Below, piece after piece: positions 13,631 through 62,000 of a DNA stretch of 64,000 nucleotides. Source of the stretch: Laetmonice hystrix (taxonomy: Eukaryota). The notes under the pieces were generated by a model, which worked only from the letters and a program-made list of their open reading frames with translations, was not told where the DNA came from and did not search any database. The position numbers and the translations under genes were made by a program. Numbering within the stretch: position 1 is the stretch's first letter; every line of letters starts with the position of its first letter. The stretch spans positions 4,094,001 to 4,158,000 of the forward strand of contig OZ249436.1 in NCBI GenBank assembly GCA_965235115.1, in the 5' to 3' direction.

Positions 13631-15407
13631 TAGTACTAGAGAAATGGCAATGAAACCTCACGGTTGGTATGTCGGTGCACTTCGCCAAGGCAGGCGCGTG
13701 ATCGCGCAGGTAGCTGCAGGCATCTCTGTAGGCATCTCCTTGTTGGTGAAAGTAACAACAGCCAAGGTTGGAGGAGCTCAAGTTAGATAGGCCTCTCGGC
13801 TTACAATTCTGGAAATACAATGTGTAGATTATTACTTGAAGCCGACGTTTTGAGATGTGTTGTGGCATTATGTTGGTGGTTCAAACCTTCCGACAAAATC
13901 CCGTATAGAGTTATGTGAAGATGTCGGTGAGTAAATAAAACTACATAACGTGTGGCTAAAATTGCTATAAACAATGTATACAACTGATTGCTATAGATTG
14001 GACTCTGTATTAGTATTTAGTAAAAGATAAACATTCACATATATGATATATGTCTAAGGTGATAAAAACATTTTTTAAATAATTCATGTCTTCACATGAC
14101 TGTAATTGTTTTTTTAAACATACCAATCCTTGCCATATTTGAGGAATACAATTTATGGAAAATTATACTTACGTCAATATCCACTGAGGTCACATTGCTG
14201 TCACTGCATACCGTTTCACATGACTTGTCGCAAACGTCTCGAGTCACGCCGGCTTTTCTAGTGCAAACGTAATTGTAACACAACTGTAGGAAGTCTTCTT
14301 TATCAAAAACTTATCATGGAAGACACTGAATATATTGTAGGTCATTATGCCGAAATAGTGAACTCCAAATAAACACAATCTCACTGAGGGATCCAGGGAG
14401 CTCGGGCCCCCCTTAGATTTGCTTTTTTATGAAGATGTTATGACTATAATTATTTAAATAATATATAGTATTTTAATAAAAAAACACATTTAGAAGTACA
14501 ATCAAATACAATTAAGTACAGATACAATCCAATCATGCCGAGCGTAGCGTAGATCCCCCACTACAATCCTCATTTTTTATCTACCCGTTATACCTCTTAT
14601 TTTCAAAATCGTTGAGCCAGAAGGCAGGGTATCAATGGATATAATCAAACAAGACTTTTGGGTCATTTCCTCCTTTGGTCCTTTAAATTTCAGCCAGCCA
14701 CCCACTCCCCATGATGCACGTTATACTATATGATATCCTGCTTGAAGAGTACCAAGGCAGTTTCTCCTTCATCAAGAAGAAAAGAACATGTGTATCGGGC
14801 GGAGCTCATGATTTTATGATTTCCTCCCTTGTCATGCCTACCTCATGCCGTTACAGAATGCCTTCTTACAATCTGCCTGGCTTAGACTGAACTCTGAAAG
14901 AAAGGTCAAAAAGTTTACAGTGGCTGATCAGACGTATTAGCTGCTTGGTATACTGAATGTCTACGAAATGAAATGATATAATGATTCTGTATCCAAGCGT
15001 ATTGATTCATGGTATGGCATTTTTATACTATGGAGATCTCATAGTAAATGCACCTACCTGAATCCCAATCCAAAGCCTCCTGTAATATGCCAAACTGTGC
15101 GATGGTGTCCGTAACCTAAGACAAATCATTACACTTTGCTGATTCAAAATTACTTAAGGCTTTTGCTTGACAATCAAAGCTGGTAAGTCGTGGTTTTAGT
15201 CCCATACCTTATTCAAAAAACTAAATGGACTCTCTTTGTTACCTCGGGTCGAGAGTATCAGTATCCTGAAGAAACCCGCATACTTAAATGTTTGCATTAA
15301 TCATTAATTAATTAATTAATTAATTAATTACCCCTTATGTTTACAATACAAACAGAACGTTAGTAAGAGGTTGGTATTCAGGACCGGCTACCGCTTGTAA
15401 ACGCTGC

Positions 15408-15712
15408 CACAGAACTCACGTAATCACTTATCGTCGCTGTGAACTTTAGGCAATGCCTGACACTGAGACCGCGTGGTCTATACGCTGACACAGAACTCAC
15501 GTAATCACTTATATCGTAGCTGTGAACTTTAGGCAATGCCTGACACTGAGACCGCGTGGTCTATACGCTGACACAGAACTCACGTAATCAGTTATATCGT
15601 AGCTGTGAACTTTAGGCAATGCCTGACACTGAGACCGCTTGGTCTATACGCTGACACAGAACTCACGTAATCAGTTATCGTAGCTGCGAACTGTCGGCAA
15701 TGCCTGACGCTG
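15408..15712. repeat. Tandem repeat, about 90-bp unit, about 3.3 copies
   Basis: cacagaactcacgtaatca..gctgtgaactttaggcaatgcctgacactgagaccgc repeated. Overlaps the 3' end of ORF 15592-16089 (-). Confidence 0.9.
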
Positions 15713-16327
15713 AGGGTATGAAGATTTTTCAATAAGAGATCCTGGTCGTCGGGAGGAATTCCGGTCTCCGACAAGATGTTCAGAAGCTCTTGAATCTCTT
15801 TTTGACTGACTTCCTCTTTCACTTTAAGGTACTTTGTCCTACGGGAGAGAAGTCCGTACGTGAGGGAGGGGTTACCAAATTCGACAGGGGGGGGGGTCAC
15901 GACCCAGCGCAATACAACGCAAAGCGACGCTTCATGTCGGCCTAAGCCTATATTTAATTTTACAAAGCGTTTCGTATGACAGTATGTTATGGATGGCTGC
16001 TTATGATAGATTAGGCTGTCAATGGCCCCAAGGAAATCACAAATAGGCCTAATATAAAAACAGTTTTGGTGGTGCTGACTGAGTACCATGTGCTGTGTGG
16101 AGGATTAGGCCAACAAAGGTGGTGATTGAAACGTAAATTGATCTGTTTTATCAAATAGTATTCAAACAAATAAATCTTGGACTTACCCAGCTGATCCCAA
16201 CATTTTGAAACAGTTTTCCGAACACCTTTTCCACGCCGTAATAATTTTTAAAAATAAATTAGATAAGTCGCTACTGGACCCGCCTTCCTTGAAAAGACAC
16301 CCATGCATACTCTGTAAAATTAATTAA

Positions 16328-25108: not shown

Positions 25109-28100
25109 TTAGTCCTCCATAGAAATGTGCTGGAAGAGATGCGACATAGACTCTTGGTTGTGGATCCTTCGCATGGCTTCCGATAACATAATGCTGATAT
25201 CAACCGTCTTAATCTTGTGGCACTGCATCTTCTGTATGTCGTGAGACACAGTGTTTGTGACGACCACCTGTAACACCAAACCACACAACACTACAGCTAC
25301 GGCAGGTTAACATATCCACATCAATCTGTATGTCGTGAGACACAGTGTTTGTGACGACCACCTGTAACACCAAACCACACAACACTACAGCTACGGCAGG
25401 TTTACATATCCACATCAATCTGTATGTCGTGAGACACAGTGTTTGTGACGACCACCTGTAACACCAAACCACACAACACTACAGCTACGGCAGGTTTACA
25501 TATCCACATCAATCTGTATGTCGTGAGACACAGTGTTTGTGACGACCACCTGTAACACCAAACCACACAACACTACAGCTACGGCAGGTTTACATATCCA
25601 CATCAATCTGTAGATCGTGAGACACAGTGTTTGTGACGACCACCTGTAACACCAAACCACACAACACTACAGCTACGGCAGGTTTACATATCCACATCAA
25701 TCTGTATGTTGTGAGACACAGTGTTTGTGACGACCACCTGTAACACCAAACCACACAACACTACAGCTACGTCAGGTTTACATATCCACATCAATCTGTA
25801 TGTCGTGAGACACAGTGTTTGTGACGACCACCTGTAACACCAAACCACACAACGTTACAGCTATGGCAGGTTTACATATCCACATCAATCTGTATGTCGT
25901 GAGACACAGTGTTTGTGACGACCACCTGTAACACCAAACCAAACAACACTACAGCTACGGCAGGTTTACATATCCACATCAATCTGTATGTCGTGAGACA
26001 CAGTGTTTGTGACGACCACCTGTAACACCAAACCAAACAACACTACAGCTACGGCAGGTTTACATATCCACATCAATCTGTATGTCGTGAGACACAGTGT
26101 TTGTGACGACCACCTGTAACACCAAACCACACAACACTACAGCTACGGCAGGTTTACATATCCACATCAATCTGTATGTCGTGAGACACAGTGTTTGTGA
26201 CGACCACCTGTAACACCAAACCACACAACGTTACAGCTACGGCAGGTTTACATATCCACATCAATCTGTATGTCGTGAGACACAGTGTTTGTGACGACCA
26301 CCTGTAACACCAAACCACACAACGCTACAGCTACGGCAGGTTTACATATCCACATCAATCTGTATGTCGTGAGACACAGTGTTTGTGACGACCACCTGTA
26401 ACACTAAACCACACAACGTTACAGCTACGGCAGGTTTACATATCCACATCAATCTGTATATCGTGAGACACAGTGTTTGTGACGACCACCTGTAACACCA
26501 AACCACACAACACTACAGCTACGGCAGGTTTACATATCCACATCAATCTGTATATCGTGAGACACAGTGTTTGTGACGACCACCTGTAACACCAAACCAC
26601 ACAACACTACAGCTACGGCAGGTTTACATATCCACATCAATCTGTATGTCGTGAGACACAGTGTTTGTGACGACCACCTGTAACACCAAACCACACAACA
26701 CTACAGCTACGGCAGGTTTACATATCCACATCAATCTGTATGTCGTGAGACACAGTGTTTGTGACGACCACCTGTAACACCAAACCACACAACACTACAG
26801 CTACGGCAGGTTTACATATCCACATCAATCTGTATGTCGTGAGACACAGTGTTTGTGACGACCACCTGTAACACCAAACCACACAACGTTACAGCTACGG
26901 CAGGTTTACATATCCACATCAATCTGTATGTCGTGAGACACAGTGTTTGTGACGACCACCTGTAACACCAAACCACACAACACTACAGCTACGGCAGGTT
27001 TACATATCCACATCAATCTGTATGTCGTGAGACACAGTGTTTGTGACGACCACCTGTAACACCAAACCACACAACGTTACAGCTACGGCAGGTTTACATA
27101 TCCACATCAATCTGTATGTCGTGAGACACAGTGTTTGTGACGACCACCTGTAACACCAAACCACACAACACTACAGCTACGGCAGGTTTACATATCCACA
27201 TCAATCTGTATGTCGTGAGACACAGTGTTTGTGACGACCACCTGTAACACCAAACCACACAACACTACAGCTACGGCAGGTTTACACAGCCATATATTTC
27301 CAATCCAAATGATCGTATACATTTTGAGACAGAAGTGTACTCACGTAGCAATCTGCTGTATGGCTAGAGGACACACAGTCTAGATTTAAAGTTACGTGTA
27401 TAACTATGTCTGTGGTGACTTACTTCATCAATAGGAGAATCATCAATTAGTCTGGGCGCATCTGCTGACAGAATACCATGGGTTGCCATCACGTAGATCT
27501 TGTAGGCCCCTCTCTCTTTTAAAATTTCTGCTGCACTGACGAATGATTCAACATCATCTACCATATCATCCTGGCAAAGAAATGATTAGGAAAAAAATAC
27601 ATTACGGAACTTTACCCTTTCCAATGAAACAATCACACAAAGATTGCTTTAAATCGTCCATAGTATTTTCACAGCTAGGTAAGATGACAAACCAAATGAC
27701 AAAGATTTGAAAACCCAATGATTGCTAAATAATATAATGCAGCAGTACAAAGTTATGTAATAATTAAATGAAGAAAACGGAAACTATAGATTTGAGGATG
27801 TTCCATGGTATACTTACAATGACAATTGCAATCCTCCCCCCGACATCTCCAACAACGTTAATCGGGGGCTTCTCTTTGGCCTGTTGCACTGTAAAAAAAT
27901 CCTCTCGTTAACATTCTGTCACCTTTTATACATAAGACATGTCAGATGAATCACACAACTGCCCAAGTTGGCCTGTTAAAAATCAGCTCAAAGCAGCAGA
28001 TAAACAAATAAGACATTGGGGCCATTGCACTAACAGTGACTGGCTGTCGACCTGTGGTTGCTGTGGTTGTCTGACTGACCATGTCACTCTCAGTCAGCCT

Positions 28101-31100
28101 CCGTCTTGTTTGCCAAAATGTCCACCAGGTGGCCATCATCATAGTTCCACAGTGTGCCACTAGAGGGCCCATCTTTACGGTTACTACCGAAAATTAAACG
28201 GCAAAGGTCCTCACTGTCTAGACTTCTTTCTAATTTTACGGCAGACAGCCCTGGTGTAAAAGATTAAGTAAAAATAGATTTTTGGGCATCAACTGACTTT
28301 TACCAAGGACCAAATTAATGTAAGCTGTTCAATAAAATTAACATACTTGGCATAAACTCAAGGCCAAGGCTGAAACTTTGCCTTGTTTCCACCTCAGGAG
28401 GTGGTGGCGAGTTGCGGCCATCATCAATTTCTGAATCTGCCGTTTTTTCTTCTCCATGAATAACAGCAATACCCAGTCGCAGGCGTTCTGCATATGATGT
28501 AGCCCGCTTCACGGCACCCGGATGGCGTGCTACAATGATTGCATTTCGGTAATCTGGGATCTGTAAAAAAAAAAAGATATTCATAATAAAATGTTTCTAG
28601 TGTAGTCAAAGTAATACAAGACCTATTCAGCTATTGTATGCGAGAATGCTATTTATTCAGCCCAAATTAAAGAATTCTGTCTTCAAGTGCAGCAGCCTTT
28701 ATATATTTTATGGTTTGCATTATACACTTACCGACTCTTTGATATACTGGATGAGAAACGGCGATGCACGTAGGTTGTCAACTGGGATGTCAAAGAAACC
28801 TTGAACTTCCTTCTGGTGAAGATCCATGGTGATAATATGGTTAAAACCTGTTCAGACCATGCATGAAGCACTATTTGTTAGTACGTATATTAGCAATCAA
28901 ATGGTGATTAATTTTAATATTGATGTGAATAATGTTTTCTGGGTCACCGGTATCATACACACGTAAAAACCACAATGCAGTCACTATCTTTACGATTCAG
29001 TTTGACCTTATCAATTAATTAATGTTCAAGGTCACATATGTGTGCCAAACGCTTTGACAAAATTATGTGAAAATACCTGACTTGCTGATCATCGTAGCCA
29101 GTAACTTTGAGACTATGGATCCCCGTTTACGCATCTTGCTTTGTTTTGAGTAAGGCATATACGGGATGACACCAACTATCTTCCGTGCTGATGCCGTTCT
29201 ACATGCATACGCCATGATAAGCATCTCCATGATGTCATTATTAACTTCTCTGAAATTAAATTTCTGATATAAGCCTCACCGTATTTGATTTATTTGATTA
29301 GGTGGGAGTACCATGGGACCCATTGGAACACAACTCAAGAGAGAAAAAAAAGTAAAATAAAATTCACAAACGGGTCACAAAATAAACTAAAATTATTCCA
29401 CTGCTGAACTTCTTAATTATTTAGGTAGATGTTCTTACAACCTACTTCTGAGGTTTTTTGCTCTTCCTAATATGGTGGAAATCATGAGCAATGTAAGTGA
29501 ATTGACATAATTTGTTATGAGCATACACAGTATGTGCTTCATTCTTTTCATTTACCACCTTGGGTTGACTTTACGACAAAGGCGCAGTCCTCAAGACACC
29601 TTTTGGAGGTCAAATATCTACCAACTCATGATGGTGAAACAGACAGTGAAACAGAATTAGTCTGGTAGTCAAATATTTACCAACCCATTACGGTGAAACA
29701 GACAGTGAAACAGAATTAGTCTGGTTCTTTTTCTTCATTTTTGTGCAACAATCTAAACGTCGTTACATCAATCGTCCATTCTCTTTATCTGTAAACCTGT
29801 ACAAATGTATATTGTCCAATCCGTACTTGATCCTGTCTGGATGATGTACACATCACGTCCACGAACAGACTCGCGACAATCTAAACCTTACATCAATCGT
29901 CGACTGTCTTTATCTGTAAAACTGTATTGTCAAATCCTTACTTTGATCCTGTCTGGATGATGTACACATCACGTCCACGAACAGACTCGCGACAATCGAA
30001 ACCTTAAATCAATCGTCGACTGTCTTTATTTGTAAAACTGTATTGTCAAATCCTTACTTTGATCCTGTCTGGATGATGTACACATCACATCCATGAACAG
30101 ACTCGCGACAATCTAAACCTTACATCAATCGTCCACTGTCTTTATCTGTAAAACTGTATTGTCAAAGACTTACTTTGATCCTGTCTGGATGATGTACACA
30201 TCACGTCCACGAACAGACTCGCGACAATCTAAACCTTACATCAATCGTCCACTGTCTTTATCTGACTGTATTGTCAAATCCTTACTTTGATCCTGTCTGG
30301 ATGATGTACACATCACGTCCACGAACAGACTCGCGACAATCTAAACCTTACATCAATCGTCCACTGTCTTTATCTGTAAAACTGTATTGTCCAATCCTTA
30401 CTTTGATCCTGTCTGGATGATGTACACATCACGTCCACGAACAGACTCGCGACAATCTAAACCTTAAAACAATCGTCCACTGTCTTTATCTGTAAAACTG
30501 TATTGTCCAATCCTTACTTTGATCCTGTCTAGATGATGTACACATCACGTCCACGAACAGACTCGCAACAATCGAAACCTTAAATCAATCGTCCACTGTC
30601 TTTATCTGTAAAACTGTATTGTCAAATCCTTACTTTGATCCTGTCTGGATGATGTACACATCACGTAGACGAACAGACTCGCGACAATCTAAACCTTACA
30701 TCAATCGTCCACTGTCTTTATCTGTAAAACTGTATTGTCAAATCGTTACTTTGATCCTGTCTGGATGATGTACACATCACGTCCAGGAACAGACTCGCGA
30801 CAATCTAAACCTTACATCAATCGTCCACTGTCTTTATCTGTAAAACGGTAATGTCAAATCCTTACTTTGATCCTGTCTGGATGATGTACACATCACGTCC
30901 ACGAACAGACTCGGCCACTTCAACCATGGTTTCTGAAAACACAAAACATACACTCATTCACTATTTACTTGCACAGTTTTATATGGTCCATAGAATAATT
31001 TAAATATACTTATAGTTAGTATACATGTCAAAGTATGCCTATGAAGATAAAACACAGATCTGGCCTAAAATAATTAGATATGAATCAAGAAGGTAGATTA

Positions 31101-32992
31101 ATTAATTCAGACAATACTCACCTCTATTAGATTTGTGGTAGACATTAGCTCTTCCCAACACGATTCCAAGTTTGCTATGAAATGACCGAGAAACAGTTGA
31201 TTTCACATTATCAACACTTTTAACAAGATTTGTTCCTGATCTCAATAGTTCTAAATTAAAATTTGCCATATGCAGCAAGCCCTAGTTTTAGTGATACTAA
31301 TGAATCAGAGGCTATATATGGCCCTGACTCTAGATTCCTTGACTATCTCTCCCCATTCCGTGGCACTGACTCACATTTTTACATTCCCAACAACAAGCTG
31401 CAAGTTTTCTAGGGTAAGACCCCTACAGCTTACAAGTCAAATATCATCAGCCTCGTCTCGCTGGAAGGGTGTGATAGATGAATATTTTGTCTAGTCATAA
31501 TCATGTTTGCAACGGCACACATGACAAAAAGTGAGGAGGGGGGGGGGCACATCAGGCACAGATCGGGGGTGAGGAGGGTCCAGACCCCTCCTACTCAGGA
31601 CCACCTTAGGTTTTTGCAATTTTCCTGGGGAAGGTTGCCCGTGTTCCCCCACCCCTGCCACTGCAAAAAGTCCTGATCTGTGCCTTTACATCTAAGCAGG
31701 CTATAATATGTTCACGTGGGTTGGGCCTGGATCCGTGCCTTCACTTTTGAACAGGCTATATGATCGGATAGGTTGGGCATGCATTTTTAGGCTTGATCAT
31801 GCATGAAGATGAAATCTGTAGCAGAATTTATAAGTGGATATTCAAGTGAGCATCCAGCACTGCGGGGGAGGGGGGTGGTTCTGGGGGTCCTACCCCCAGA
31901 GAAGGCCAAAAAACGCTATTTCCCGGCATCTGGAGTATGGACTGGGCCCCGTCTTACTAAGAATATTCCTCGCCGAACGGCGACATCGCCAAACGGCGAT
32001 GTCCCGGCGACATCCCCCGATGACTGTCTTACTAACAGGTCGCCGATTGTCGCTTATGCTGATGATAATTCGCCCAGCAGAGAAACTTAAAACACGATGT
32101 TTAACATCCTTTAAAGTCCATTTTACATTATTACCTTTTATTAAATATATATCTAAAATCCTGAGCTCAACTTATGCTGTATGATTATGATAAACTAACA
32201 TTCTAAAACACGCTATTTTAGACGTCCGCCATGCCCGTCCACTGTGTCGGCTAGAATCACTGTCTATTTTGACGTCAGACAATGGTTTGTTTGGACGTCA
32301 CGTAGCGCTCTCTGCAAACACAAACGTTGTGTTCGTGGCACTGGGGAGAGACAGCAAGATCTCTACTTTACGGTTAGACATATTTTAGCTTTTATTTACG
32401 TAAAGATGTACCTCTAATTAACAGTTTTTTATTGGCGATTTTGCGGCGACTGCTCAGTAGCACTCCCCGCCAAAGTCGCCAAAATGGCGAAATCGCCAGA
32501 GAGGGATTTTTCAGTAAGACACCTAGAGCTGGCGATATCGCCGATTTGGGGATTTGGCGGCGATATTGGCGGCGATCTGCGTTAGTAAGTCGGGCCCCAG
32601 GAGATATAGAAATTGTGAAGATTTAGATTTAGCCATGCCTAGCCTACAAATAATTTTTGTCACTTCTTCACACACACAAAAAAGCCCCCCCCCCCCCCCG
32701 ATCCACGGCACTGGCAGTCAGTGACACTGACAGGGTGTGTGTGACTGTGACTGATCGAGTCAGTGGGTGTGACACTGACACTTAGTGACAGACACTGTCA
32801 GTGTCACTGTGTACTGACACTGTCACTTGAGTCTAGTTTGGGTGTGTTACGGTTACTGTTACTGTTACTACTACTAGTTAGTCAGTGTGTAGACAGTCAC
32901 ACTTACTCTGCTATCAGTTGTGACAGTTCAGGGTGAGAATTTCCAGCAAATACCGTCATAGGGCCCCGGGCCCCTGTCGTGTACATCTCCAT
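25109..32992 (-). CDS. PRPSAP2: Phosphoribosyl pyrophosphate synthase-associated protein (PRPSAP1/2-like), 9 coding exons, 361 aa
   Basis: Exons (-): 32907-32992, 31122-31174, 30866-30932, 29077-29249, 28732-28847, 28347-28560, 27818-27888, 27424-27570, 25109-25267. All GT-AG, phases join, total 1086 nt. Peptides include [138 protein letters not shown]. The HGE..DGR.SPP insert and DDMVDD (not DDMADTCGT) identify the non-catalytic PRPSAP rather than PRPS1. Paralogue number is nominal. Confidence 0.95.
25231..27286. repeat. 94-bp tandem array, 22 copies, containing the PRPSAP intron 8 acceptor and the first 37 nt of exon 9
   Basis: Unit starts at 25231, 25325, 25419 ... 27205. On the minus strand each unit has GGTGTTACAG|GTGGTCGTCACAAACACTGTGTCTCACGACATACAGA. 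Confidence 0.97.
29760..30912. repeat. 116-bp tandem array, about 10 copies, containing the last 47 nt of PRPSAP exon 3 and its donor
   Basis: ctttgatcc recurs at 29941, 30057, 30173, 30285, 30401, 30517, 30633, 30749, 30865. Minus strand reads GAGTCTGTTCGTGGACGT..GGATCAAA|GTAAGG. Confidence 0.97.
31945..32597. mobile_element. PIF/Harbinger-like MITE in PRPSAP intron 1
   Basis: ctg|ggccccgtcttactaa ... ttagtaagtcgggccc|cag (TIR 14/16 match), with subterminal tcgcc/ggcga repeats at both ends. Confidence 0.7.
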
Positions 32993-33700
32993 ATTGCAGC
33001 GTTGTGGGCGTCTACCGTGCTCACGACACTGGAGGGGGTAAAACGGATATTTCAACTCCAGAGTGCAGCTCTAGGACGAGGAGAGCACGCGAGCCCTCAT
33101 CAAAACACCTTGGACAATAATGACCTTCACCTTGGCTTCAGACTGCCGAGCCGACATGCAAAATATCTTCGGACTGTGCTGAGTGTCCACAGCTTTAAAC
33201 AGTATGTGGAAAGTCGGGTGCTTAGTCACAGGCCACTACCAGAAAAGGTTTTAACATAAATATAGGATCGCTAAAGGCTAAAAGCGGCAAAGCCGGGGGG
33301 GGGGGGGTGGCACTTCGGGCTATTTTTGCGGGATTGCCGTCGGAATGGTGACGTCATTAGAGATAAATAGGTCAGGCCGAATTCTGGGTGAGAGCACGGA
33401 ACGGCACCATGCGGATTCCACTTCTCGGAACCAAATAAAATGACCCCATTTTACTGTAATTACAGTCGCTCTCATCATTGCCATTGTATTAATTGGTACT
33501 TTTCTTTAAGTTATAGGTCGATACTTCTTTAAAAATAAATTTGCTCACATGAAATACGGAACGAAACTTGACCTCATTACAATTTGGCTTTTGACACAAC
33601 CCTGGAGAAAATCCCTGACCTGATTCTGCGACCGCCTTTTCCGCGCTGGCTGTGGCGTGTGATTGTTTACGACTTTATGACAGGCCGTTGTATTCCTATA
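32993..33700. promoter_or_regulatory. Putative bidirectional promoter and 5'UTRs shared by PRPSAP and NTHL1
   Basis: Divergent start codons are about 0.7 kb apart. The interval is CpG-containing and has a palindromic CRE/ATF site TGACGTCA at 33349-33356. Confidence 0.6.
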
Positions 33701-36700
33701 ATGACGTCCCCTTACTTCACTCCTGCGTTGCGAATGACAAGACTGACAGCGAGAAAGTTGGCCAGTTCCAGCGATAGCAACATCAAGCCTAAGCTGACCA
33801 AACTTTCCAAACGAATCAAATCTAAGAAGGTGGTAAGCAAAGACGGGTTCCCGGCCGGCACTCCAGCCGGCAGTACGTCATGCACCACACGTGGTGCCCA
33901 GCACCCTCGCCCGGAGCCGGCGGAGGGACTGAGTACAGCTGCTACTGCCGCCGTCAAAATCAAGGAAAGTCAGTGTCGACCAGGGACCAACTATCCATCG
34001 CGTACTGCATACAAACGAACATCAGTTAAAGTAGAATACGATGAACGGGGTGGTACAGAGACTAGTGACGGCAGTGATGGACAACCCGTCACTGCCGTCA
34101 AGGCCAAGGCGTTGAAGCTAGGCTGGGAACCCAAGGACTGGAGGCAACAACTTGAAAATATTTATGAGATGCGGAAACACAGAGATGCACCAGTGGATAG
34201 CATGGGGTGTGATCGAATCAGTGATACCCAAGCAGAACCCAAGGTGGTTATTAGAATTGGATAATTGGAAGAGACTAGTACTTCTAGATCTACTAATATT
34301 TGCCATTTCCATTTGGTACTAGTAATAGTAATTTAAATTTCTGCGAATTAAGTTTACTCCATCATCCATGTTCCAAAGACAAAGTACATGATGTATGTAT
34401 GAATGCTTGTAATCCGTATGTATAATGATCTACTACAAACTGAAAATCAGGATAATAGTTTGACCAGAGATCCTGACATGGTTTGATAGTAGATCTAGGG
34501 CTGATGGGTGATATGGGGGGGGGGGGGGGGGGGGGGGGGTTATGGGAAGAATTTGCTAAGTGGGTTCAGCTTCGTCAATTCAGAAAGTTCTTTGGGGAAA
34601 AAAGAAAAATTGGTTGCCAAGGGAGGGGGGAGGGGTGGTTAAACGCTCTAAACACAACAGGTAGAAGCAATTAATCCAGCTGTATAGCCAAGTTATGGGG
34701 AGGGGGGGGGGGGGAGTCGAAGCCCTTCTTGATCTGCATCTGCCTCAGTACCTCTGCAATTGTAACTCCAGAAAATATTCATTATTCTTCATCATCATAC
34801 CTTTTCTCCACAGACAAACAAGCAGAGTAAAAGAAATATTATATATTTCCCTAGGTATACAGGTACCAGTGCCTGCTCAGTTTGATGTTGTCAAGTCAGA
34901 CCAAAGACCAGGTGACAAGTGCAGCAATGATGAAGTTACGAGCTCATGGCTGCTCACCTGACAACATTCTCAATACTTCAGATGAGAAGCTAGGGGAACT
35001 GATATATCCTGTCGGTTTTTGGAAAGTAAGTGTCCTTACAGTCTTCTTGGAAATAGCATAAAAATATATCCGTCCCTGCCCCCCAAAAAAGTTGCCGGGT
35101 CCTGGTATGAAGAACATTTCAAAGGTGATGTGGTTTTTGTTTTTTTTAAATAATTTTTTTTTGGGTTACAGCTGGCTAAATGCTGGTAAGCCTCATAAGA
35201 ATTATCATGTAAAATGAACCCATAAACAAGGGCCATACCTTGGCTGTCATCGCTTTGAATACAACACACTCCTGTTGCAGTGTTGTTAATCAAAAATATC
35301 CATTACAACAATCGTTAGTTTCAAGCCTTACCACTAGGTGGCAGCACAATTCACACAGTCATGCAAGGGAAATAAACACTGATGCACTCCTTCTGAAGTG
35401 ATGTGCACATACCAGAAACCAGGGATTTTCTTTTTTTGGCCTAAGTTAGATCCAAATACCATTGAACATTTTTCCATGATTAATAACCCCAAAAAAGGAA
35501 ACAAAGTGGGTAAAAAATATATTTTCCAATTCAATGGGAAATATCTTATTTTTCGCAAGGACATACCAGGGTATATAAGTAATTGGTGTAGGCCTATCTA
35601 TACAAATGTGTTTTAGAAATACTGATTATAGACTTTTTTGCCAGTTTATCTTTAATTTAACTCCTATTGATCAGGTTAATATAATCGCATCAATAATGTC
35701 CCATGATCTTTGAGAGCATCAATAATGTCCCATGATCTTTGAGAGTGGTGTCTGTAAATTTGGATTGACCTTGTATCCAGACAAAAGTGCAGTATATCAA
35801 GAAAACGACACGTATCCTGAAAGAACAATATGATGGTGACATCCCTGACACCATTGAGGGCCTCTGCAAACTCCCAGGTACTGTAGGCCTACTTTAGCTC
35901 ATGCAGAGCTACTCAGTTACAAAAATCTAAATTTCTTATGTTAAAAAAAATTAGTGAATTGCTGTCCACCTTTTAGGGGGGGGGGATTGTTTTTTTGTTA
36001 CACATGACGACAAATTGTCAATAAGGGCTACAAACTTGCGATAGTCATGAGTAATAACATGTATCATACCCAATGGTCTGCGGCAAATTGTCTGGTCTAA
36101 AGAAACTTGTAGTTTAACCTGAAGTTCAAGCCATGTCGAGCCTTCTTGAATTATTTAATCTGCTGACAGTAAAGTATCCGTTGCAGGTGTCGGACCAAAA
36201 ATGGCCCATATCACAATGAAATCTGCGTGGAATGTGATCACTGGTATAGGAGTGGATACACATGTCCATCGTATAGCGAACCGTCTTGGGTGGGTCCGTA
36301 AAGCCACAAAACAGCCGGAGGATACACGCAAAGCTCTAGAAGATTGGCTTCCTAGGTTAGTCAACTGCTAGCTCCTTCTTCTAAATTCTATTCAGTTTGT
36401 CAGAACCGTTAAAGCCACGAGGTTGTAGAATCTTGGGACGAGCCAGCAAAATACAGTTTATTGCAATAACTTAGTCTACCATGAATTCTTCATCAAGTTT
36501 TTATTCAACATTATTCTATAGTTACTTAAGTTGATACTTGATATTTCTTTTTCAGAGAATGCTGGGAAGAAGTCAATATATTGTTTGTGGGCTTCGGCCA
36601 ACAGACATGTCTGCCGGTTGGCCCGAAGTGTGTCACGTGTCTCAATAGACGGCTGTGTCCCACTGGTCGGAGTAACACACGTGGTATGAAGGTTGAGACA

Positions 36701-39757: not shown

Positions 39758-42671
39758 CTACTTGTCATCCTTTTTCTTCTGGACAGCAAAGTACATTTCT
39801 AGGGGTTTGTTCACCTTCCAATATTTTTCATTTACTTGTTCCAGTGTCATGGATCCTGTGAGTACAGTAAAGTTGCCTGGCGTTGATGCAATATAAATGG
39901 TGTATTTCTTCTGCTCAATCTCAACGCTTGTCCCTGAAACCAAGAGTTGATATGATAGTTAGTAGCTCACTAAATAGAACCTTGGATGAACCCATAAAAC
40001 CCCACAACATATAGTAACTGGCTATCATCAGATCAGAGACTTTTGCGACATGATAGTTTGAAAAATATACACATTCCTTATTAGTATTCATCTCTTTTAT
40101 GTTGGTTATTGGTCTTCATTATTTTGTTGTCATTCCTGCAGAACAATCTTCGTGCTTCTAGCTCTATGTGAAACCAATCCATTCAACATGAAAAAATAAA
40201 ATTTGGTGTACCTGATTCAGCTTCCTTCACTTTCTGGGCCTCCAGGGCTATTCGCAAGGCCAAATACTTGCACAGGTGGTCCACTGCAACATTTCATCAC
40301 AAATTTAAAATTAAATGCCTTAAATTTGCAACATTTCTATATATTATAACATAATGGCCCTGGTGACATTATCAATGATCAAAATTAACATGGGGCCCTT
40401 TTGTCTCTTAAAATAAGTAGCAATATACTCCATGGCTTACTTACTCTTAAAAGGTTGTGTGTCAACTAACCCAAAAATACTCTATGGCTTACTTTTAAAG
40501 GTTGTGTGTCAACCAACCCAAAAATACGCAGCAATATACTCCATGGCTTACTTGTACTTTTAATCGAAGGTTGTGTGTCAACCAACCCAAAAATAAGTGG
40601 CAATATACTCCATGGCTTACTTACTCTTAATCAAAGGTTATCTGACAACCAACCCAAAAATACAGCTGCACTTTACAAGACAAGAAGCCATTTACTTGCA
40701 AAACTACTGTCTGCATGTCAGCTTAATAATGTTCATCGGATCAAACATGGCATGTAATTCATACAAATTTCATACCTATTACAGTGCCTCCCCCAGGATT
40801 TCAGGAAGGCTGAATAATACGTCAGTAAAAAGGTGCACATTTTGCATGGGAGTGAGTGAGTGAGTGAGTAGTGGTGGTTTTCCGCCGTGCCGGCATCCCA
40901 CATTTTGCATGGGACAAGTGCCTAAGGCATCGGGGCGAGTGCCAGAGGTGTGAAGTGTTAGAGGGGGATCTGGGGTTTTAGCAAAGGAATTGATGCTATG
41001 GTAGTTATATGGATGCTATGGATTGATCAATTATGAATGATATTGTAAAATGTATAAATTTAGATATGTTCATAAGGCCACTTAAAATTAATAAATTGTT
41101 TTACATGGCCGGCCGCCTCAATTTTTTGGTGCCGCTTCGATTTTTTTTATATTTTATATTTTTCAAAAAGTCCGTTTTTTTCATCCCCAAAACCGTCTCC
41201 CACAGTTCTGTCAGGGTGTTACAGTTAAGTGACTCTCAATGTATAGAAGGGCTGTACAAAATGTTGAGATTTTGAGAAATTAAAAGTATTTTTCCAGTAT
41301 TGGTGATCTCTGCTGTCCTTCCTCTTGTCGAGGAAAAATATAAAATATAAAATATAAAATGCCCTACTCACCAACATTTCAGAAGTTGGAGTCATGTAAA
41401 ACAATTTATTAATTTTAAGTGGCCTAATGAATGAACTGGTTCTTTGAGGTCTGTGTAATGACACACTGACAGGTCAGCTGGGTCATTTCTTGATAACTTT
41501 GGGTATTATGAATTATATGGGGGAGGCACGGCACTGTCTGACAGGGACGGGGTGTAAAAAGGCAGGGTGCCGCACCCTGCTACTTTTCACTAGGGCAGGC
41601 ACTGCCTAAACTTCCCAGTAGGCTAGTCTGGCTAGTCTAAGTCTAAGCAGATATAAAGGCAACTTGTATTTGCCAGCTATATACAACAGTGGCGTACCCT
41701 GAAACTGGACCCAGAGGGGTGCTGGAAATAACCAACATCGTAGGCGCTGCAAATTGGGAGGGGGCTGTGGGCAACAAGCGCAAAAAAAAAATTGGGAAAA
41801 TTGAGGGGGGTGCTTGAGCACCCCAAGCACCCCCCTGGGTACGCCACTGTACACTGCCTAATCTTTAAACCACCAATGTTGTACCTGTGGCATTCGCTGT
41901 CGTTTTGACATATCTGGTGGCGTTGACATCACTCTGTTCCTCTTGTGGATGAGGTTTGAAGACAAGCTCGACGTCGTTTACCACCTTCTCCGGGGTACAC
42001 ATCGCGGCGATGACGGCATCTGGTACACTCTCCCCGGCCACAGACGTCGACGACCCGCCGTCCCCGAGCGACTGGTTCGATTCCCCAGCAGACTCTTCCG
42101 AAGGAGCACGAGGTCGTTTTCGGGGTGTTGCTTCATTTGCTGAAGAATTGGCACCATCCGTTTGTTCACCTGGCAAAACTTCACCTCCTTCCACGGGACC
42201 ACCATGCTTTCTCACCCTCTGCGCCCGGTTTCGGGCCTGCAAACGCATGACCTCTTTGAAGGTGTTTGTGAGCGAATTAGTGCTTGTCTGTTGCGTCAAA
42301 TTCTGCAGCACTCGTTCTTGGTGTGCTTCATATTCATCCCTACTTGGGTATATCTTGGAAATGAGGGCATCAAAATTTGGATCTGGTCGAAGAGACCGCT
42401 TCGAGACCAGTTTTTTGCGACAAGTGGGGCATTCCTTATTGCCCGATCGCAAGGCTGTGATGATACACTCCTGACAGAACCGATGCAAACACTCTTTTGT
42501 TGTCATTGTGTTCTTCAACATATCGAGACATATTGGGCACATTAGCTCGTTATGTAAGCTCTTTGGACTTACGGCAATCTCTGTAGTGTCTGTGATTGTT
42601 TCCTGTGGGGTTCTGTGGAGCTCATAAAGGCTTAATTCCCACGTTTTGCTCGGTACTGGTGGATGTTCCAT
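39758..42671 (-). CDS. RNF2: Polycomb PRC1 E3 ubiquitin ligase RING1/RING2 (Sce/RNF2 orthologue), 3 coding exons, 344 aa
   Basis: Exons (-): 41885-42671, 40212-40283, 39758-39933, total 1035 nt. N-terminus [83 protein letters not shown] domain [61 protein letters not shown]. The ORF-track start at 42701 is a GTG; the first ATG is at 42671. Confidence 0.96.
41076..41424. mobile_element. MITE with perfect 32-bp TIR and TAA duplication (PIF/Harbinger-like) in RING intron 1
   Basis: TAA|ggccacttaaaattaataaattgttttacatg ... catgtaaaacaatttattaattttaagtggcc|TAA. Confidence 0.85.
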
Positions 42672-44067
42672 GTTGATTTTCTTGGAGTGTCGCTTCTCCA
42701 CATCCGGGCACTTTCAGTGCGCTGAGTGATCTGACTGGTCCCCTGTTCAACTCCTATCTCAATCTCCGAGGAGAGGGAGGACTGAGCAGGGGACCAGTCA
42801 GCTGAATGATCTGCGTGTGAAACACTGGTGCGACATGAGAAATATCCTCTCACTCTCAGCTGTGTCTGGTTGCTCCAGATGGGAGAAAAACGCACCAGGC
42901 GCGTCAGAGTAGGGGAGGGGGCAGGGGGGGGGGAGCAGTTGCCCCCCACTTTTTCCTACACTACTACAGCAAAAAAAGTGAAAGGCGGCTAAGGCTATAG
43001 CCTTGGCTAGAAATAATAGGCCTTGGGCGGCCTGTGGCTGTGTTGAAATTTCCACTGAAAGTGACACCAAAACTCCCAAATTAATTTCATGACCAATGCC
43101 ATGGCAATGCCAGATAAAATTAATCAAATTCACTAATATTGTTCCCAAGAACGTTGTGGTAATAAAGAACCAAACATGTAGATCTCTATATCAAATTTAA
43201 TGACTTTTCCATGACTTCTCCTCGTTTTGGCCGCTACTCTGCAAATTCCATGACTTTTTCATAACTTTTGACATGACCGTGGCCGTGGCGTGGGATCATT
43301 GACTTGGACTTGGAAGTTGGAGTTGGAATCAGTGGCGTCCGTAGGCCCTATCCAGAATTTTTTTAAGGGGGGGTTTCCGAAGTTTAGGTACCGGTAGGCC
43401 TACTTCACACAGATGGCCATTAGCAATTGGAAATTTAACAAAAAGACATCAAATAAATATAAAATAGATCTAGGCCTACTAGGCCTTATTAATGCAATGA
43501 TCTTGGGACATCTTGTGACTTGTGAAGTTGTGTGGAAATATGAAGGTTTCCTTTGGTTAAAATAGATCTAATGCATTTTACACCCCTAGCTTTTTTTTTA
43601 CCAAAATTTCCTTAACATAGTATTTTTTTAAGGCGGGGGGTCTCCAGGCGGGGGGTCTCCAGGTGCGGATTCAGGGGGGCCGAGGGGGCCGCGGCCCCCC
43701 CTTTCGTCAGGGTACCAATCAGAAAAAAGGCAAAATTTTGTTGTTTGCAACTGTAAAAACAAACATTTTGCTTTCTCAGAATGCAGGAAATTTCAGGAAA
43801 TGCCATTTCAGAGACTATAGATGTTCAAAATTGTCCGGGGCATGCCCCCGGACCCCTACTAGGGCTCGCCCCCCCTTTAATTCCAACTGGACCCCCCTTT
43901 TCCAAAATCCTGGATCCGCCCCTGGTCTCGGGATAGGCCTACTTTGAAACCCCCCTGGCCACACTGCAGTGACTCTACCGGCCCTTTCACAGTTCATCCG
44001 CGATTATCTGCGCAGCAATTTGCAAGTCGGTCTCGCTTTCGAAATATCGGTTGATGATTGTCGCAAA
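42672..44067. promoter_or_regulatory. Putative bidirectional promoter region between RING1/RNF2 and E4F1
   Basis: Divergent start codons are about 1.4 kb apart, with a CpG-rich patch at about 43990-44120. Probably includes a RING 5'UTR intron. TSS not determinable from sequence. Confidence 0.5.
43660..43924. mobile_element. CAGGGGCGGATCC-type MITE family B, copy 1
   Basis: caggtgcggattcagg ... cctggatccgcccctg termini. The body is the reverse complement of 46520-46758. Confidence 0.75.
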
Positions 44068-47000: not shown

Positions 47001-50000
47001 GCTGAATTTTACAAATTCTTCTGGACAGACACCAATTACCTTGTCTTTTCTTCACTAGTAAATTATGCCTACTCTGCTGGATATCTTTCTATTGAGCAGA
47101 AGCGTGGAATCATAACCCTAATCCCCCAAACGCGCAAAAATAAACTATTCATAACTAACTGGGGACCTATCTCTCTCCTTAATACTGACTATAAACATAC
47201 CACATACATGTGTATTATTAACGCGGATCAGACCGCCTATATCAAAGGTCGTTTCATTGGTGAAAATATCCGTGTCATATAGACGATATACTGTCCATTG
47301 CACAAGCACGCGGATTATCCTGCATTATAACTACGGTCGATTTTGAAAAGGCTTTCCATACTGTCTCCTGGACCTTCATTAATAAAACCCTTCAGGCCTT
47401 TAATTTTGGCCCTATTTTCCATAACTAGATTAAAATTTTATCCAACGACATTATTATATATGTACATCAATATCCAATAATAACGGACGTTTAGGTGCCC
47501 CCTTTCATCCACAGAGAGGGATACGTCAAGGCTGTCCTATTTCAGCTTATTTATTCTTGCTAGTTGCTGATCTCTTAGCTTCTCACATAAGAAAAGATAA
47601 AGATGTAAAAGGTGTCTTTATAAATGATGACGAAATTAAAATTACTCAAGTTGCTGATGATACTACACTAATTCTCCTTGATTGTCAGTCCCTAAAGAAT
47701 GCTGTTAAAATCTTAGACCTATTTTACTAATGCGCAGGCTTAAAAATTAATTTAAACAAAACAGTGGCAAAATGAATAAATTCTCCACCAAATATAAACT
47801 CAAATCTTTTTGGTATTATATGGACCAACGGAAATATACAGTCCATTGGTATTACTTTTGTACGCAGTGAGTTTGAATCATACAAGATAAACTTCAAAAC
47901 TAAGATCACTAATCTCCGTAACTTACTTAACGTTTGGCGTCAGAGAAATCTTTCAATAAAAGGAAACATCACTATAATTAATTCGCTTGCCATCTCTCCT
48001 ATTATCTATATGGCTCAAATAATTCGCGTGCCCACAAATGTTATCGTTGAAGTAGAAAAACTGTTATATGACTTTTTATGGAGTGGTGGTAGTTCAAAAG
48101 TTGCCAAAAGTGTCATCACTCAAACGATAGATAATGGTGGTTTGAAAATGGTGGATTTTTAACAGGTAAGCCAGGTCTCTCTTAAACCTACCTGAACACA
48201 AAACCATTCCATTTTTTCAATATACAGATATTGTGAGTTGAAAGCTCTGCCTCCCTTTTATAGGGAGTTATTAACCTTCTGGAATGATATAAAGAATGTT
48301 AACCCCCACCAATCGGGAACATTATTCTCAAACAATATATTTGGAATAACAATTCTCTATTAATTGGCAAAAAGCCCTTTTGTTGGAAACAATGGATTAA
48401 TATGGGTGTACTTTACATTTCTGACTTACTAACACTTGATTCTGACTTCATGTCGCATACTGATCTCCATACCAAGGGAGTCCGATGTAACTTTCTAGAC
48501 ATATGACAAATACGTCAATGTATACCCTTCGAGTGGAAGGTTATCCTATTTAAATATTCCAACGAATTCCAACGACCTCGGCCTCATTAAAGCTATTACT
48601 GCATTTGGGGTAATACAGAACCACGTGGAATTTGGTCATATTCTTGAATGACAGGCAGTGATGACTTGTGATACGCCAGTTGTGGATAGACGGGAGGAGG
48701 GGGGCAGGTCAGAGCTTTAATGAGGCCGAGGTCGAGGTCTTCTTAAAGCGAACAGACTATAGGGCCTACTACCTTATAAAAAAAGAGGAAGACTGTGCAC
48801 TGTTATGTAGGGCCTACTTATCAGGTTCTGTTCAAGAAAGTTCTACCCTGCTTGTATCATATAACAGTCTACTTGTATACAAATGATTATTTACCAAGCC
48901 TTAAATGTATATACTATAAATTGTTATATAACTATACTTTATCACATTTCAAGTTAGCCTATAACGGTTTAAAAGGAAAATAAAAGCCCGGATGCCTAAA
49001 TATATTGGGTAAACCAAGCTGATTGGCGATATATCCCCAATTTTGGAGTATAGCAAGTTGCACTGACCCACCCATGAAAACCTGTTGATATAACACATTA
49101 AGCTACTACTTGCAAATGTCTATCATGCAGAAATATTAACTAGGGATATCATACTTAACAAAAATGCATATTAGAATTTGCCCCCTAAACTGGTACCGAA
49201 TGGCCATTTTTGGCCTATCTGGCTCATGGACTACATGTCAATTGGTGGCTTGTAATGTTTCTGCTTCCAGATTTCCAGGATTTTTTAGATATTCTAAAAC
49301 CTGGGGGTTTTCCCCAATTTTATATCTATAGGTAAAGTATGGCAAGACATTCTTGGACAAACAAGCTCTGATGCCACAGATCCTTAGAGGAAGAGGGAGA
49401 GGGAGACCAGTCAGAGGTCGTGGACGACCTCGCAAGGTGGACAAACCTGCACAACTATCAGAAAATGAGCAAGTAAAAAAAGGTATTTTTATTTATTAAA
49501 TTGGAGGAAAAATGTTCAGAGGTAGAATAAAGGAAATTTTGTATTTTGGACTCGTTAGGTCAGTGCCAGTTTAATTGATCATTGGTCACGTGACTCAATG
49601 CACTTACAGCTCCTGCAGTACGGTTCAAGCGCTCCTTACAACTACACACACCTGACAACATTTATACAAATACTTCTTACAAATGCCCAAAATGTGACAA
49701 GACATTCCGTCGAGAGGCTGCTCTCAACCGACATGTAGAATATGACCATGTAAAGAAGGAGGACGTGGAAGTTGATGAAGAAGATGAGGAAGATAAAGAT
49801 TCAGAAGGCAGAGAGGATTTCAATGAGGAGCAGAATGTGGATTGGACAAGTGGTGGATCACTGAAGCCATATGGTTGTACACATTGTGGAAAGTATTTTA
49901 GAGAGGTAGGTGTCGCTAACTATCACTGTATCAGACAAGTACGGTGAAGTACCAGATGTATTGATAGTCTAATTGGTGCCGGGCGGGCGTGGGCACATCC

Positions 50001-59000: not shown

Positions 59001-62000
59001 AAAGAAAGATTTAGTTCTATTATATTTCATAATCACAAAATAGCCTCAGTTATAACACTATACTGTTATCATTACCTTGCGATAAAAGTTCAGTGGGAAA
59101 TACAATAATTTTTTTAAAAGATTTATTTTAGGGCAACATATTAATTGGCATTAGGTAGGGAGGGCCCAGGTAGGCCAAGTATGATAATATATTGTATATC
59201 CTACCCCAGTAAAAACCTGTACTCACGGGCTTTGCCCGAATTCCCCAACTGTTCCCCCCCATCGTTTTTTCTTGGGGGGGGGGGCTGCCCCTCTGCCCCC
59301 CCCCCGGCTCGTACGCCCACGCCTGTACTGGACTTTCACTAAGAGAACACCCCTTGGGGTCGGTAGTCCCCAGGTGACGTCATTAATGAGGTTAACTCAT
59401 TCATCTATAGTTTTTTTCCTGGCGTCATTCTGTGTGAGCCTGCCCTAGAAAATGCTCACTCGCACCCTATTGTTTTCCTTGTCACTTAGCAGCATTTCTG
59501 ATTGGCTGCTTTCTCGGTTAATCAACAAGTGGAGGAGAGTAAAAAAACCGACGTCGGGTCGGGATGTCAGACGGGCGGTTATTAGTGGCAGACGGGCGGG
59601 TGAGGGTTTGACGGCAGCGGGCGGCCGGGGAGGCGTGCGCCCAGCCCGGACGAAAGGGGGAGGGTTGTCGGTACGGACATGACCATTGTACCGGCAGGTG
59701 AGCTCCACCAAACTCCCACCCCTCCCACCGGCTAGCTTGGTCTCGCCCATGGCCGGGCTGTCTGCTCGGTGACAGCAGCGTCCGGGGCCGGTGGCCGATG
59801 GCCGGCCTCGATCAGACCCGCGCCGTAATTTACGGTGGCCCAAAAGGGACATCGTTATTTGTCTACAATAGGTTATATTTTCCCTACAACTTTTTAAAGA
59901 AACATTTTAATTTTTTTCCAATCTATTATTCTATTTCCACCCGGGGAAAAGTATTTCCACCCAGGTGAAAAGTATTTCCACCCGGGTGAAAAGTATTTCC
60001 ACCCGGGTGAATCGCGTGATACCAATCATGATACCAATGCCAACGTGGATGCTGATGCAGCAGGTAGATGCTATTCTTTAACCACTACAGGCAGGTTAAT
60101 CACAGGCAGTGCCAATCAAAACATAAGCTACGCCCAGTTTCCGCCAAATTCGATTCGGCAACACGACTGACACGGGACCAACTGATTGTAGTAATTACTC
60201 CCCTATATACCCCACCTGACTGTATTTGTCTTTTTGAAAATGCACGGGCATCAGGCGTAACCCAATTACTTTGACAATGTCCCTAAAGAGAAAAGTTGTA
60301 TAGTCCTCTACAGGAATCGAACCCAGGCCCCAAGATTACTGCACCCATTCGCATAGCATAAGGTATCGACGCCCATGCCCACTCGGCCACCGCCACTTAG
60401 TGATTAGGACCCTATCTACCCCATCTGACCCCTTTTGGGCCACCGTAGTAAATACCGAAAGGGAGCAGAAAATTGGCACTGTTTTGGGACGCTGCCCCCA
60501 CTGCTATGGCGGTGGATAATTACGTACAGGATATAAGATTGCAGTAGTCATAACCAATTTTTTATAGAGGTTTTTTTCAGATTGATCGTGATTCTGACAT
60601 ATCACGCATCCCATTTTCCATCAAATCTAAAAAATTCGGGACATTTTCTTACAGGGATGCCAGCATTGCATTAGAGCAGCTTTTGGAACTGAAGGACACC
60701 TCGGAAGGTGAAGTGAACGTCGTGATGACGTCAGGTATCCATGGTTACAAGCCTCTCCACAAGTGTCGGGTGTGTGGACGCAGCTTCCGAGGTCTCCGCT
60801 ACCTGGGACTGCACATGCGCATTCATACAGGTATGATGACAGGAATCATTTCACACACACACACACCCTTCCATACACTCAGATAATGAATAACTTTACT
60901 TAACCCCCCCTTCCATACACTCAGATAATGAATAACTTTACTTACCCCCCCCCCCCCATGCACTCTGGGCCCGGTTTTTGTGTGTTTACTTTTCCACCGT
61001 GAGCAAGGGTGAGCATAAGCTCATGCTCACTGTTTTCATGTTTTTTTGTTGTTTTTTTCCCCGTGAGGCAAGCTTATGGTGAGCAAGCTCAAGGGAAAAA
61101 AAGAAAATGGTGAGCAAAGCAGTGAGTATGAGCTCATGCTCACCCTTGCTCAGCTCAGCCCACCCTTGCTCACGGTGGAAGAGTAAACAAAAAAGGTGGC
61201 CCAGATAAATCACTTGACTTACCCCTCGCCCCCCCCCCCCCATTCCAAACACTTTACACTCAGATAAGTCACTTAGCACCCTGGTCCCACCACTTCTAAC
61301 ACTAGGACAAATCCCCACAAATAACACTGAGCTCTACATCTCTTCAGACTAAGTATGACCCCAGTAGAACTTGTCAGTTGATGGAAACTGCTCGATCCTA
61401 TAACAAACTCTATGATGCAGTGTACCGGGAACCATAACTTAATGCCGGCTTGTTGTATGACAGTACATTGTTGTACATGTATTAATGTATAGAATGAACA
61501 GTTTGTTTTTCTTTGATCCCTGTGTTAGGAGAGCGGCCTCACAAGTGTACCCTGTGCCCCAAGACTTTCGGTACGAAAGATACATTAGCCAAGCACATCC
61601 AGGCTCACTCAACTGAACGACACTATCAGTGTGGAGAGTGCGGCAAACTCTTCAAGCGCATCTCTCACGTCAAGGAACACCTAAAGATCCACAGCTCCGA
61701 ACGGCCATACCCGTGCCATTACTGCGAAAAGTCTTTCAAAACTACGGTCAGTAACCAAGAGATAATGTCCAACGAATGTCTTTCTAAAAGTCCTTCAAAA
61801 CTACGGTCAGTAACCAAGAGATAATGTCCAACGAATGTCTTTCTAAAAGTCCTTCAAAACTACGGTCAGTAACCAAGAGATAATGTCCAACGAATGTCTT
61901 TCTAAAAGTCCTTAAAAACTACGGTCAGTAACCAAGAAATAATGTCCAACGAATGTCTTTCTAAAAGTCCTTCAAAACTACGGTCAGTAACCAAGAGAAA

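Follow-up and report, generated by a model that had tools for sequence, protein, structure and literature searches.

A mirage-like minisatellite repeating the acceptor of the terminal exon of a PRPSAP2-type gene in the annelid Laetmonice hystrix

When an intron presents the spliceosome with 22 nearly interchangeable 3′ splice sites in a row, which of them is taken, and do the others matter to the gene? The question is raised by the last intron of a PRPSAP gene in the window, that is, the whole 64-kb stretch of Laetmonice hystrix DNA that was analysed. The parts of the gene concerned are:

25109..32992, minus strand: PRPSAP (PRPSAP2-type) gene, nine coding exons, 361 aa (Pfam and PDB matches, homologs; five joints in the contigs of run X4)
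27424..27570, minus strand: PRPSAP exon 8 (Pfam PF14572 positions 90-138; contig joints)
25109..25267, minus strand: coding part of the terminal exon 9, 52 aa plus stop (Pfam PF14572 positions 139-184; PDB)

A model of nine exons separated by GT-AG introns (32992 to 25109) yields an uninterrupted frame of 361 aa, in which exons 8 and 9 match consecutive parts of PF14572. Human PRPSAP2 and PRPSAP1 are matched far better than the PRPS enzymes by both exon 6 (E 8.7e-19 to PRPSAP2 versus 1.9e-4 to PRPS2) and exon 9 (3.6e-19 to PRPSAP2 versus 3.1e-11 to PRPS), the best PDB match of the latter being human PRPSAP2 329-379. The closest named homologs are those of Capitella (78% over the full length), Owenia, and Lingula. 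PRPSAP proteins are described in PMC12238573 as non-catalytic partners in the PRPS complex that carry an insertion, a non-homologous region, in the catalytic flexible loop; in the present case, exon 6 matches PRPS only to residue 45, and the alignment of a 92%-identical relative (P0001) to PRPS1 is split in two by about 35 additional residues. The host gene resembles the PRPSAP2-type PRPS-associated proteins of that source in its best PDB matches (human PRPSAP2/PRPSAP1) and in the flexible-loop insertion. Judged by its sequence, the gene encodes a PRPSAP2-type protein with this insertion and with nothing unusual compared with known members, the arrays described below being intronic after correct splicing. 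Head-to-head with the PRPSAP start and within about 0.6 kb of it lies, on the plus strand (33074-36368), an HhH-GPD glycosylase gene, which we take to be MBD4-like.

Intron 8 and its boundary with exon 9 are built as follows:

25231..27286, minus strand: 94-bp minisatellite of 21.9 units (TRF and unit alignment)
25361..27243, minus strand: 21 decoy acceptors in 94-nt steps, exon-side first base 25361 to 27241 (unit alignment, matrix scores)
25267..25269, minus strand: authentic intron 8 acceptor, AG at 25269-25268 (open frame; spliced contig 24)
27287..27423, minus strand: non-repeated 5′ stretch of intron 8, 137 nt long, holding its one donor (27423)

At 25231-27286, TRF reported a period of 94, 21.9 copies, 98% matches, and 0% indels. 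Each unit is made up of the last 57 nt of intron 8 and the first 37 nt of exon 9 (12 codons plus one base), and the minus strand carries 22 acceptor copies at an exact 94-nt spacing, their exon-side first bases running from 25267 to 27241. The duplicated splice signals are kept, with the AG retained in 21 of 21 decoys and a GT directly after the AG in all 22 copies. The original prediction of 21 near-identical acceptors upstream of the last PRPSAP exon, in units bearing the real acceptor and the first 12 codons of exon 9, is borne out by these 94-nt steps, 98% likeness, and 37 exon nucleotides per unit; its estimate that the array takes up about 95% of intron 8 was slightly high, in that the array does fill most of the intron (27423-25268, 2156 nt) but amounts to 93.6% of its length. 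Inside the array the units are homogeneous, 10 of 20 being identical to the consensus; divergence is greatest in the 5′ border unit, with six differences, and the last unit departs from the consensus at exactly one base (25309). When the genome (627 Mb in 35 contigs) was searched at the DNA level with one unit and its exon flank, very common words being skipped, 22 matches were returned, all of them at the PRPSAP locus; within that search, a mobile or dispersed repeat is ruled out. The array is not a chance occurrence and, from the likeness of its units and the search, appears private to its locus, homogeneous, and young-looking.

Could the array be the work of the assembler rather than of the animal? 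This is extremely unlikely, even though none of the listed contigs spans the array. Contigs from four public runs of one sample cover the region, namely the DNA runs X1-X3 and a further run, X4. In the X1-X3 contigs, the array unit is covered at depths of 1236, 878, and 2200, against 55, 44, and 31 for the unique flank; these depths are sums and not copy numbers, two of the ratios lying near 20-22 and the third at 72. The units, moreover, hold shared and private variants in a non-random order, which also speaks against an artefact. The repeat thus exists independently of the assembler, although not of the animal, as the DNA-run contigs probably come from the assembled individual. The same DNA runs contain two divergent haplotypes at 28500-29700, with, for example, six substitutions and one insertion over 161 nt of intron 4.

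The acceptor in use was read from X4. This run carries no RNA label on its record and is taken as RNA because its three contigs skip five introns at GT-AG ends, introns that are kept in the DNA runs. In contig 24 (1732 nt, depth 60), exons 6, 7, and 8 are followed directly by the shared 37 nt and then by unique exon 9. The stretch compared with X4 comprised 1.5 units without exon 9, and contig 24 leaves it exactly where the unit and the real exon 9 diverge, exon 9 being identified from the loose-end letters of the contig. Since these letters are those of unique exon 9, the full-length exon 8-9 junction exists and was assembled unbroken. If colinear, the spliced contig implies that exon 9 extends to about 23824, giving a terminal exon of about 1.4 kb or more. 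In a transcript spliced at a decoy, the intron part of the unit would be present many times over; it is covered by none of the three X4 contigs, a hole that was counted as no evidence. Contigs drop rare forms, give no ratio, and do not phase reads across repeats. Among the X4 contigs of this one sample, in which rare decoy products could be missed, there was no truncated product. Normal mRNA is made from the authentic last acceptor, as seen in one contig from one sample. Contig 24 agrees with the claim that 21 similar acceptors are passed over before the spliceosome settles on the last copy, low-level use of decoys being possible behind contigs of a single sample.

What the decoys would yield follows from translation. 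Splicing to 20 of the 21 would give a 326-aa product with a stop five residues past the shared part (18 of these products being identical and two having one changed residue), and the nearest decoy would give 359 aa, read on out of frame. The 40 residues lost by truncation show a mean identity of 77% across 70 full-length homologs aligned, of 120. It was thus rightly foreseen that almost any upstream copy would truncate a conserved C-terminus and that the nearest would read on out of frame. The decoys might be used to an appreciable extent and their products, with an early stop and a very long 3′ UTR, degraded, leaving the array as a mild load. Decoys as strong as the real site and transcribed before it would lend themselves to such use, and the 20 early-stopping products would carry up to 2 kb more 3′ UTR. 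The marking of a transcript for decay, however, needs a junction downstream of the stop, and a stop in the last exon has none; the stop of the decoy products would fall in the last exon, and the X4 contigs show none of these products. We regard degradation of this kind as decidedly improbable.

How, then, is the last acceptor singled out? On a rough, self-trained acceptor matrix, the decoys score 12.0-13.7 bits against 13.1 for the real acceptor, which ranks in the top 5% of 103 inferred acceptors; because the decoys score like the real site, the acceptor sequence is not the discriminator, and acceptor strength was rejected as an explanation. The masking of decoys by RNA structure was rejected as well, three decoy units and the region of the real acceptor all folding less stably than shuffled sequences (z +2.1 and +1.9, respectively). 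Exon size alone does not explain the choice either, since terminal exons tolerate length. As the acceptor used in intron 8 is the last transcribed, 5′-to-3′ scanning does not account for it. According to the Discussion of the factor F7 paper (PMC1557585), scanning is widely accepted for 3′ sites, and of the duplication studies mentioned there, one found only the proximal copy used and another the opposite. In the light of the scanning view and these conflicting studies, use of the last copy is not the default prediction.

The human F7 system of that paper offers a close comparison. The 37-bp VNTR in F7 intron 7, like the PRPSAP arrays, carries identical splice sites with the end unit forming the real junction, and splicing is confined to the site adjoining the exon, as in the PRPSAP contigs (PMC1557585). 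Its spare donors, otherwise unused, were shown for F7 to be functional once the real one is removed (same source). F7 is a donor-side case in which the used copy is the first transcribed (PMC1557585), and in this it matches an array in PRPSAP intron 3 that was absent from the original prediction; unlike F7, PRPSAP intron 8 uses the last transcribed acceptor. The intron 3 array is:

29810..30913, minus strand: second PRPSAP array, 116 bp × 9.6, over the end of exon 3 and its donor (TRF; contig 26)

It repeats the last 46-47 nt of exon 3, as a donor-side twin of the array in intron 8, and holds nine further donors downstream; splicing from any of them would cut the protein short at 69 aa. In contig 26 (X4), exon 3 is linked to exon 2 and, by way of the first donor, to exon 4, even though one of the downstream donors scores 8.9 bits against 7.4 for the real one. 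The site used in each of the two PRPSAP arrays adjoins the unique body of the exon (contigs 24 and 26).

The account that we favour, and consider quite likely to be right, is that of a tolerated local duplication in which the last copy is chosen by exon context and which has no regulatory role. A local tandem duplication would have chanced to span the boundary of intron 8 and exon 9, and the array would have been amplified and homogenised like other minisatellites of a repeat-rich genome, presumably by unequal exchange or slippage. The anatomy of the array and its local origin are directly observed. The extra acceptors would be tolerated in that the spliceosome takes the copy before the intact exon body, as in the one contig seen, with position or context, and not the sequence of the acceptor, probably deciding. 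After 37 exon bases, every decoy runs back into intron, and the last copy continues into the rest of exon 9, which would bring enhancers and 3′-end signals with it. The array would in this case be a “mirage” without regulatory role. The logic of exon definition and of competition between sites accords with a choice by exon context, and in a duplicated-site experiment, Reed and Maniatis in 1986 reportedly found that sites beside truncated exons lose in competition.

One finding counts against the explanation by context, namely that the real copy has a private branch-point-like variant. Two pentamers are concerned:

25306..25310, minus strand: private variant of the last unit (base 25309), a branch-point-like pentamer with its A at -40; a lead only
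25771..25775, minus strand: private variant in the decoy 25737, a branch-point-like pentamer with its A at -35

It could accordingly be argued that only the real acceptor has a working branch point, the private base making a YTRAY at -40 that is missing from the consensus decoy. The sole difference of the last unit does create the motif, as only 3 of the 165 possible single substitutions in the -50..-15 window would, and 20 of the 21 decoys are without a YTNAY in the same window. Yet the decoy 25737 has a YTRAY of its own at -35, five decoys carry a weaker TNAY at -24, and two AG dinucleotides lie downstream of the -40 site ahead of the acceptor (among 46 sampled acceptors, 6 have an AG at least 12 nt beyond the nearest YTRAY). 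The enrichment of YTRAY in this genome is slight (44 of 103 acceptors versus 36.8 ± 4.9 in shuffled sequences), the kinesin, myosin C18, and myosin C20 arrays have no such private motif, and the idea is post hoc. We consider a branch point private to the real acceptor an unlikely cause of the choice. With the variant at base 25309, the frame of the nearest decoy also loses its stop codon.

The GT after each AG suggests another route, in which exon 8 is first joined to a decoy; the donor thereby restored would then be spliced to a later copy, and so on to the last. The AG is followed by GT in 22 of 22 copies, the end product would be the same as contig 24, and one other array (kinesin C1) is AG-GT as well. 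The regenerated donor, however, scores 1.1 bits against a median of 8.5 among 100 inferred donors, and lies below all 100 of those kept (the lowest being 3.5, a value partly set by the selection threshold), and the GT is here part of a conserved valine codon. Three of the four other acceptor arrays have no GT after the AG, so such a route is not needed in general. The recursive splice sites known from very long introns are AG-GT ratchet points at which a strong donor is regenerated. The PRPSAP copies have AG-GT in common with them but differ in the length of the intron (2.2 kb) and in the weakness of the regenerated donor, the strong donor typical of recursive sites being absent at 1.1 bits. 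Taken together, re-splicing is very unlikely here.

Tandem arrays make up 27% of the 64-kb window, and further ones touch exon edges. On the plus strand, a 59-bp × 20 array (61727-62907) repeats the predicted donor of a C2H2 zinc-finger exon (about 61530-61746), and the next exon, near 63113, carries the zinc finger on in frame past the array. On the minus strand, an 83-bp × 3.8 array (15401-15714) has four donor-like sites at the end of an exon-like frame of 58 codons. It is a possible fourth boundary array of the window; the frame beside it had no Pfam match, and its only Atlas hit was at 0.76. A gene with RING and RAWUL domains (Polycomb RING-finger type; 39761-42713, minus strand) contains an intronic 69-bp repeat with donor-like motifs, away from any exon edge seen. 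At 47434-47727 (plus strand) lies a reverse-transcriptase fragment just under the Pfam cut-off.

The frequency of such arrays was estimated from a survey of 77 loci around exons of myosin, kinesin, and aldehyde dehydrogenase, merged into 54 blocks of 199,751 non-redundant bases; a search for TCP1 loci, intended for the same survey, found none. The surveyed bases hold 41 tandem arrays. Junctions were deduced from profile matches and the self-trained matrix, from the letters and not from RNA: 112 matches in the blocks gave 110 acceptor and 109 donor candidates, of which 103 and 100 were kept by score (203 in total, 201 distinct). Two or more extra copies of the junction-spanning 20-mer were found at 4 of the 203; a fifth case repeats an acceptor with only five exon bases, and a further probable acceptor array (myosin, L021) is among the junctions dropped for low score. 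These four to five compare with about 1.5 expected by random placement (P(≥5) 0.02; P(≥4) about 0.07, worked by hand), so boundary arrays are frequent and show no sign of purging. The sample suggests that about 2-2.5% of the junctions in the genome may carry boundary arrays, 5 of 203 corresponding to a 95% interval of 0.8-5.7%.

One surveyed case (L051, G000:C20:12491429-12492961) is a 101-bp array that places 14 or more decoy acceptors ahead of a kinesin P-loop exon; between -60 and +12, its real acceptor matches the nearest four decoys exactly. If this gene splices normally, position would be the only visible cue. Further arrays span predicted junctions at L020, L044, L027, L021, and L054. 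Those at donors among the surveyed loci are found in a myosin (34 bp × 13.9) and a kinesin (45 bp × 12.1), and those at acceptors in two myosins and one kinesin.

Judged on its anatomy, the PRPSAP array is a “mirage” minisatellite, a class known from amphioxus that the original prediction overlooked: it is a head-to-tail minisatellite, its unit spans an exon-intron boundary, the splice signals are duplicated, and the mRNA is normal, the last as seen in one contig. In PMC3087553 and PMC3902484, the amphioxus mirages are those of Adh3, troponin C, the globins BflGb6 and BflGb9, and PGBD5, troponin C and PGBD5 having been added by PMC3902484, and the class is described as not disturbing splicing. 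A tandem unit over an intron/exon boundary, a duplicated splice site, and a normal mRNA are common to both animals, and the interior units are homogenised with a diverged border unit as in the globin mirages (PMC3087553). The differences lie in the array, of 22 units at 98% in PRPSAP against 3-6 units at 81-100% in BflGb6, and in the sides affected, which are divided between BflGb6 (acceptor) and BflGb9 (donor) in amphioxus and united in one gene in PRPSAP (amphioxus data from PMC3087553). The host is also an annelid and the exon a terminal one, whereas the amphioxus mirages are cephalochordate.

These comparisons bear on the suggestion that the array is a regulatory device, its copy number setting the ratio of full-length to truncated PRPSAP and hence tuning PRPP synthesis. 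The loss of 40 conserved residues from a non-catalytic partner of the PRPS complex (PMC12238573) would give such a device something to act on. Against it, there is no truncated form among the 70 full-length homologs aligned (a set chosen by length), the like anatomy occurs at unrelated genes (myosin, kinesin, zinc-finger), and the repeat is private to the locus and young-looking, with a full-length form as the sole transcript seen. The tuning of full-length against truncated PRPSAP by array length, as originally predicted, is therefore not upheld, no truncated product having been seen, arrays lying at unrelated junctions, and the class being described as harmless to splicing. We hold regulation by copy number to be highly improbable. 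It is most likely that the array is a tolerated by-product of minisatellite turnover. That the last copy is instead reached by re-splicing through the AG-GT donor, or that splicing leaks to truncated PRPSAP in a copy-number-scaled manner that varies between alleles, is quite unlikely; were either true, the minisatellite would be a working part of splice-site choice.

A truncated PRPSAP form could matter to the animal, but nothing points to one, and as a genome feature, the boundary array is ordinary for this animal. It amounts to a natural experiment on the choice of a 3′ splice site, in which 22 acceptors of equal strength precede a terminal exon and the last one is used, and so bears on first-come scanning versus exon context, the intron 3 array serving as a donor-side control in the same gene. 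The share found in the survey would, if general, extend the class from single amphioxus genes to genome scale, and the frequency of boundary arrays matters for gene annotation and for models of intron gain.
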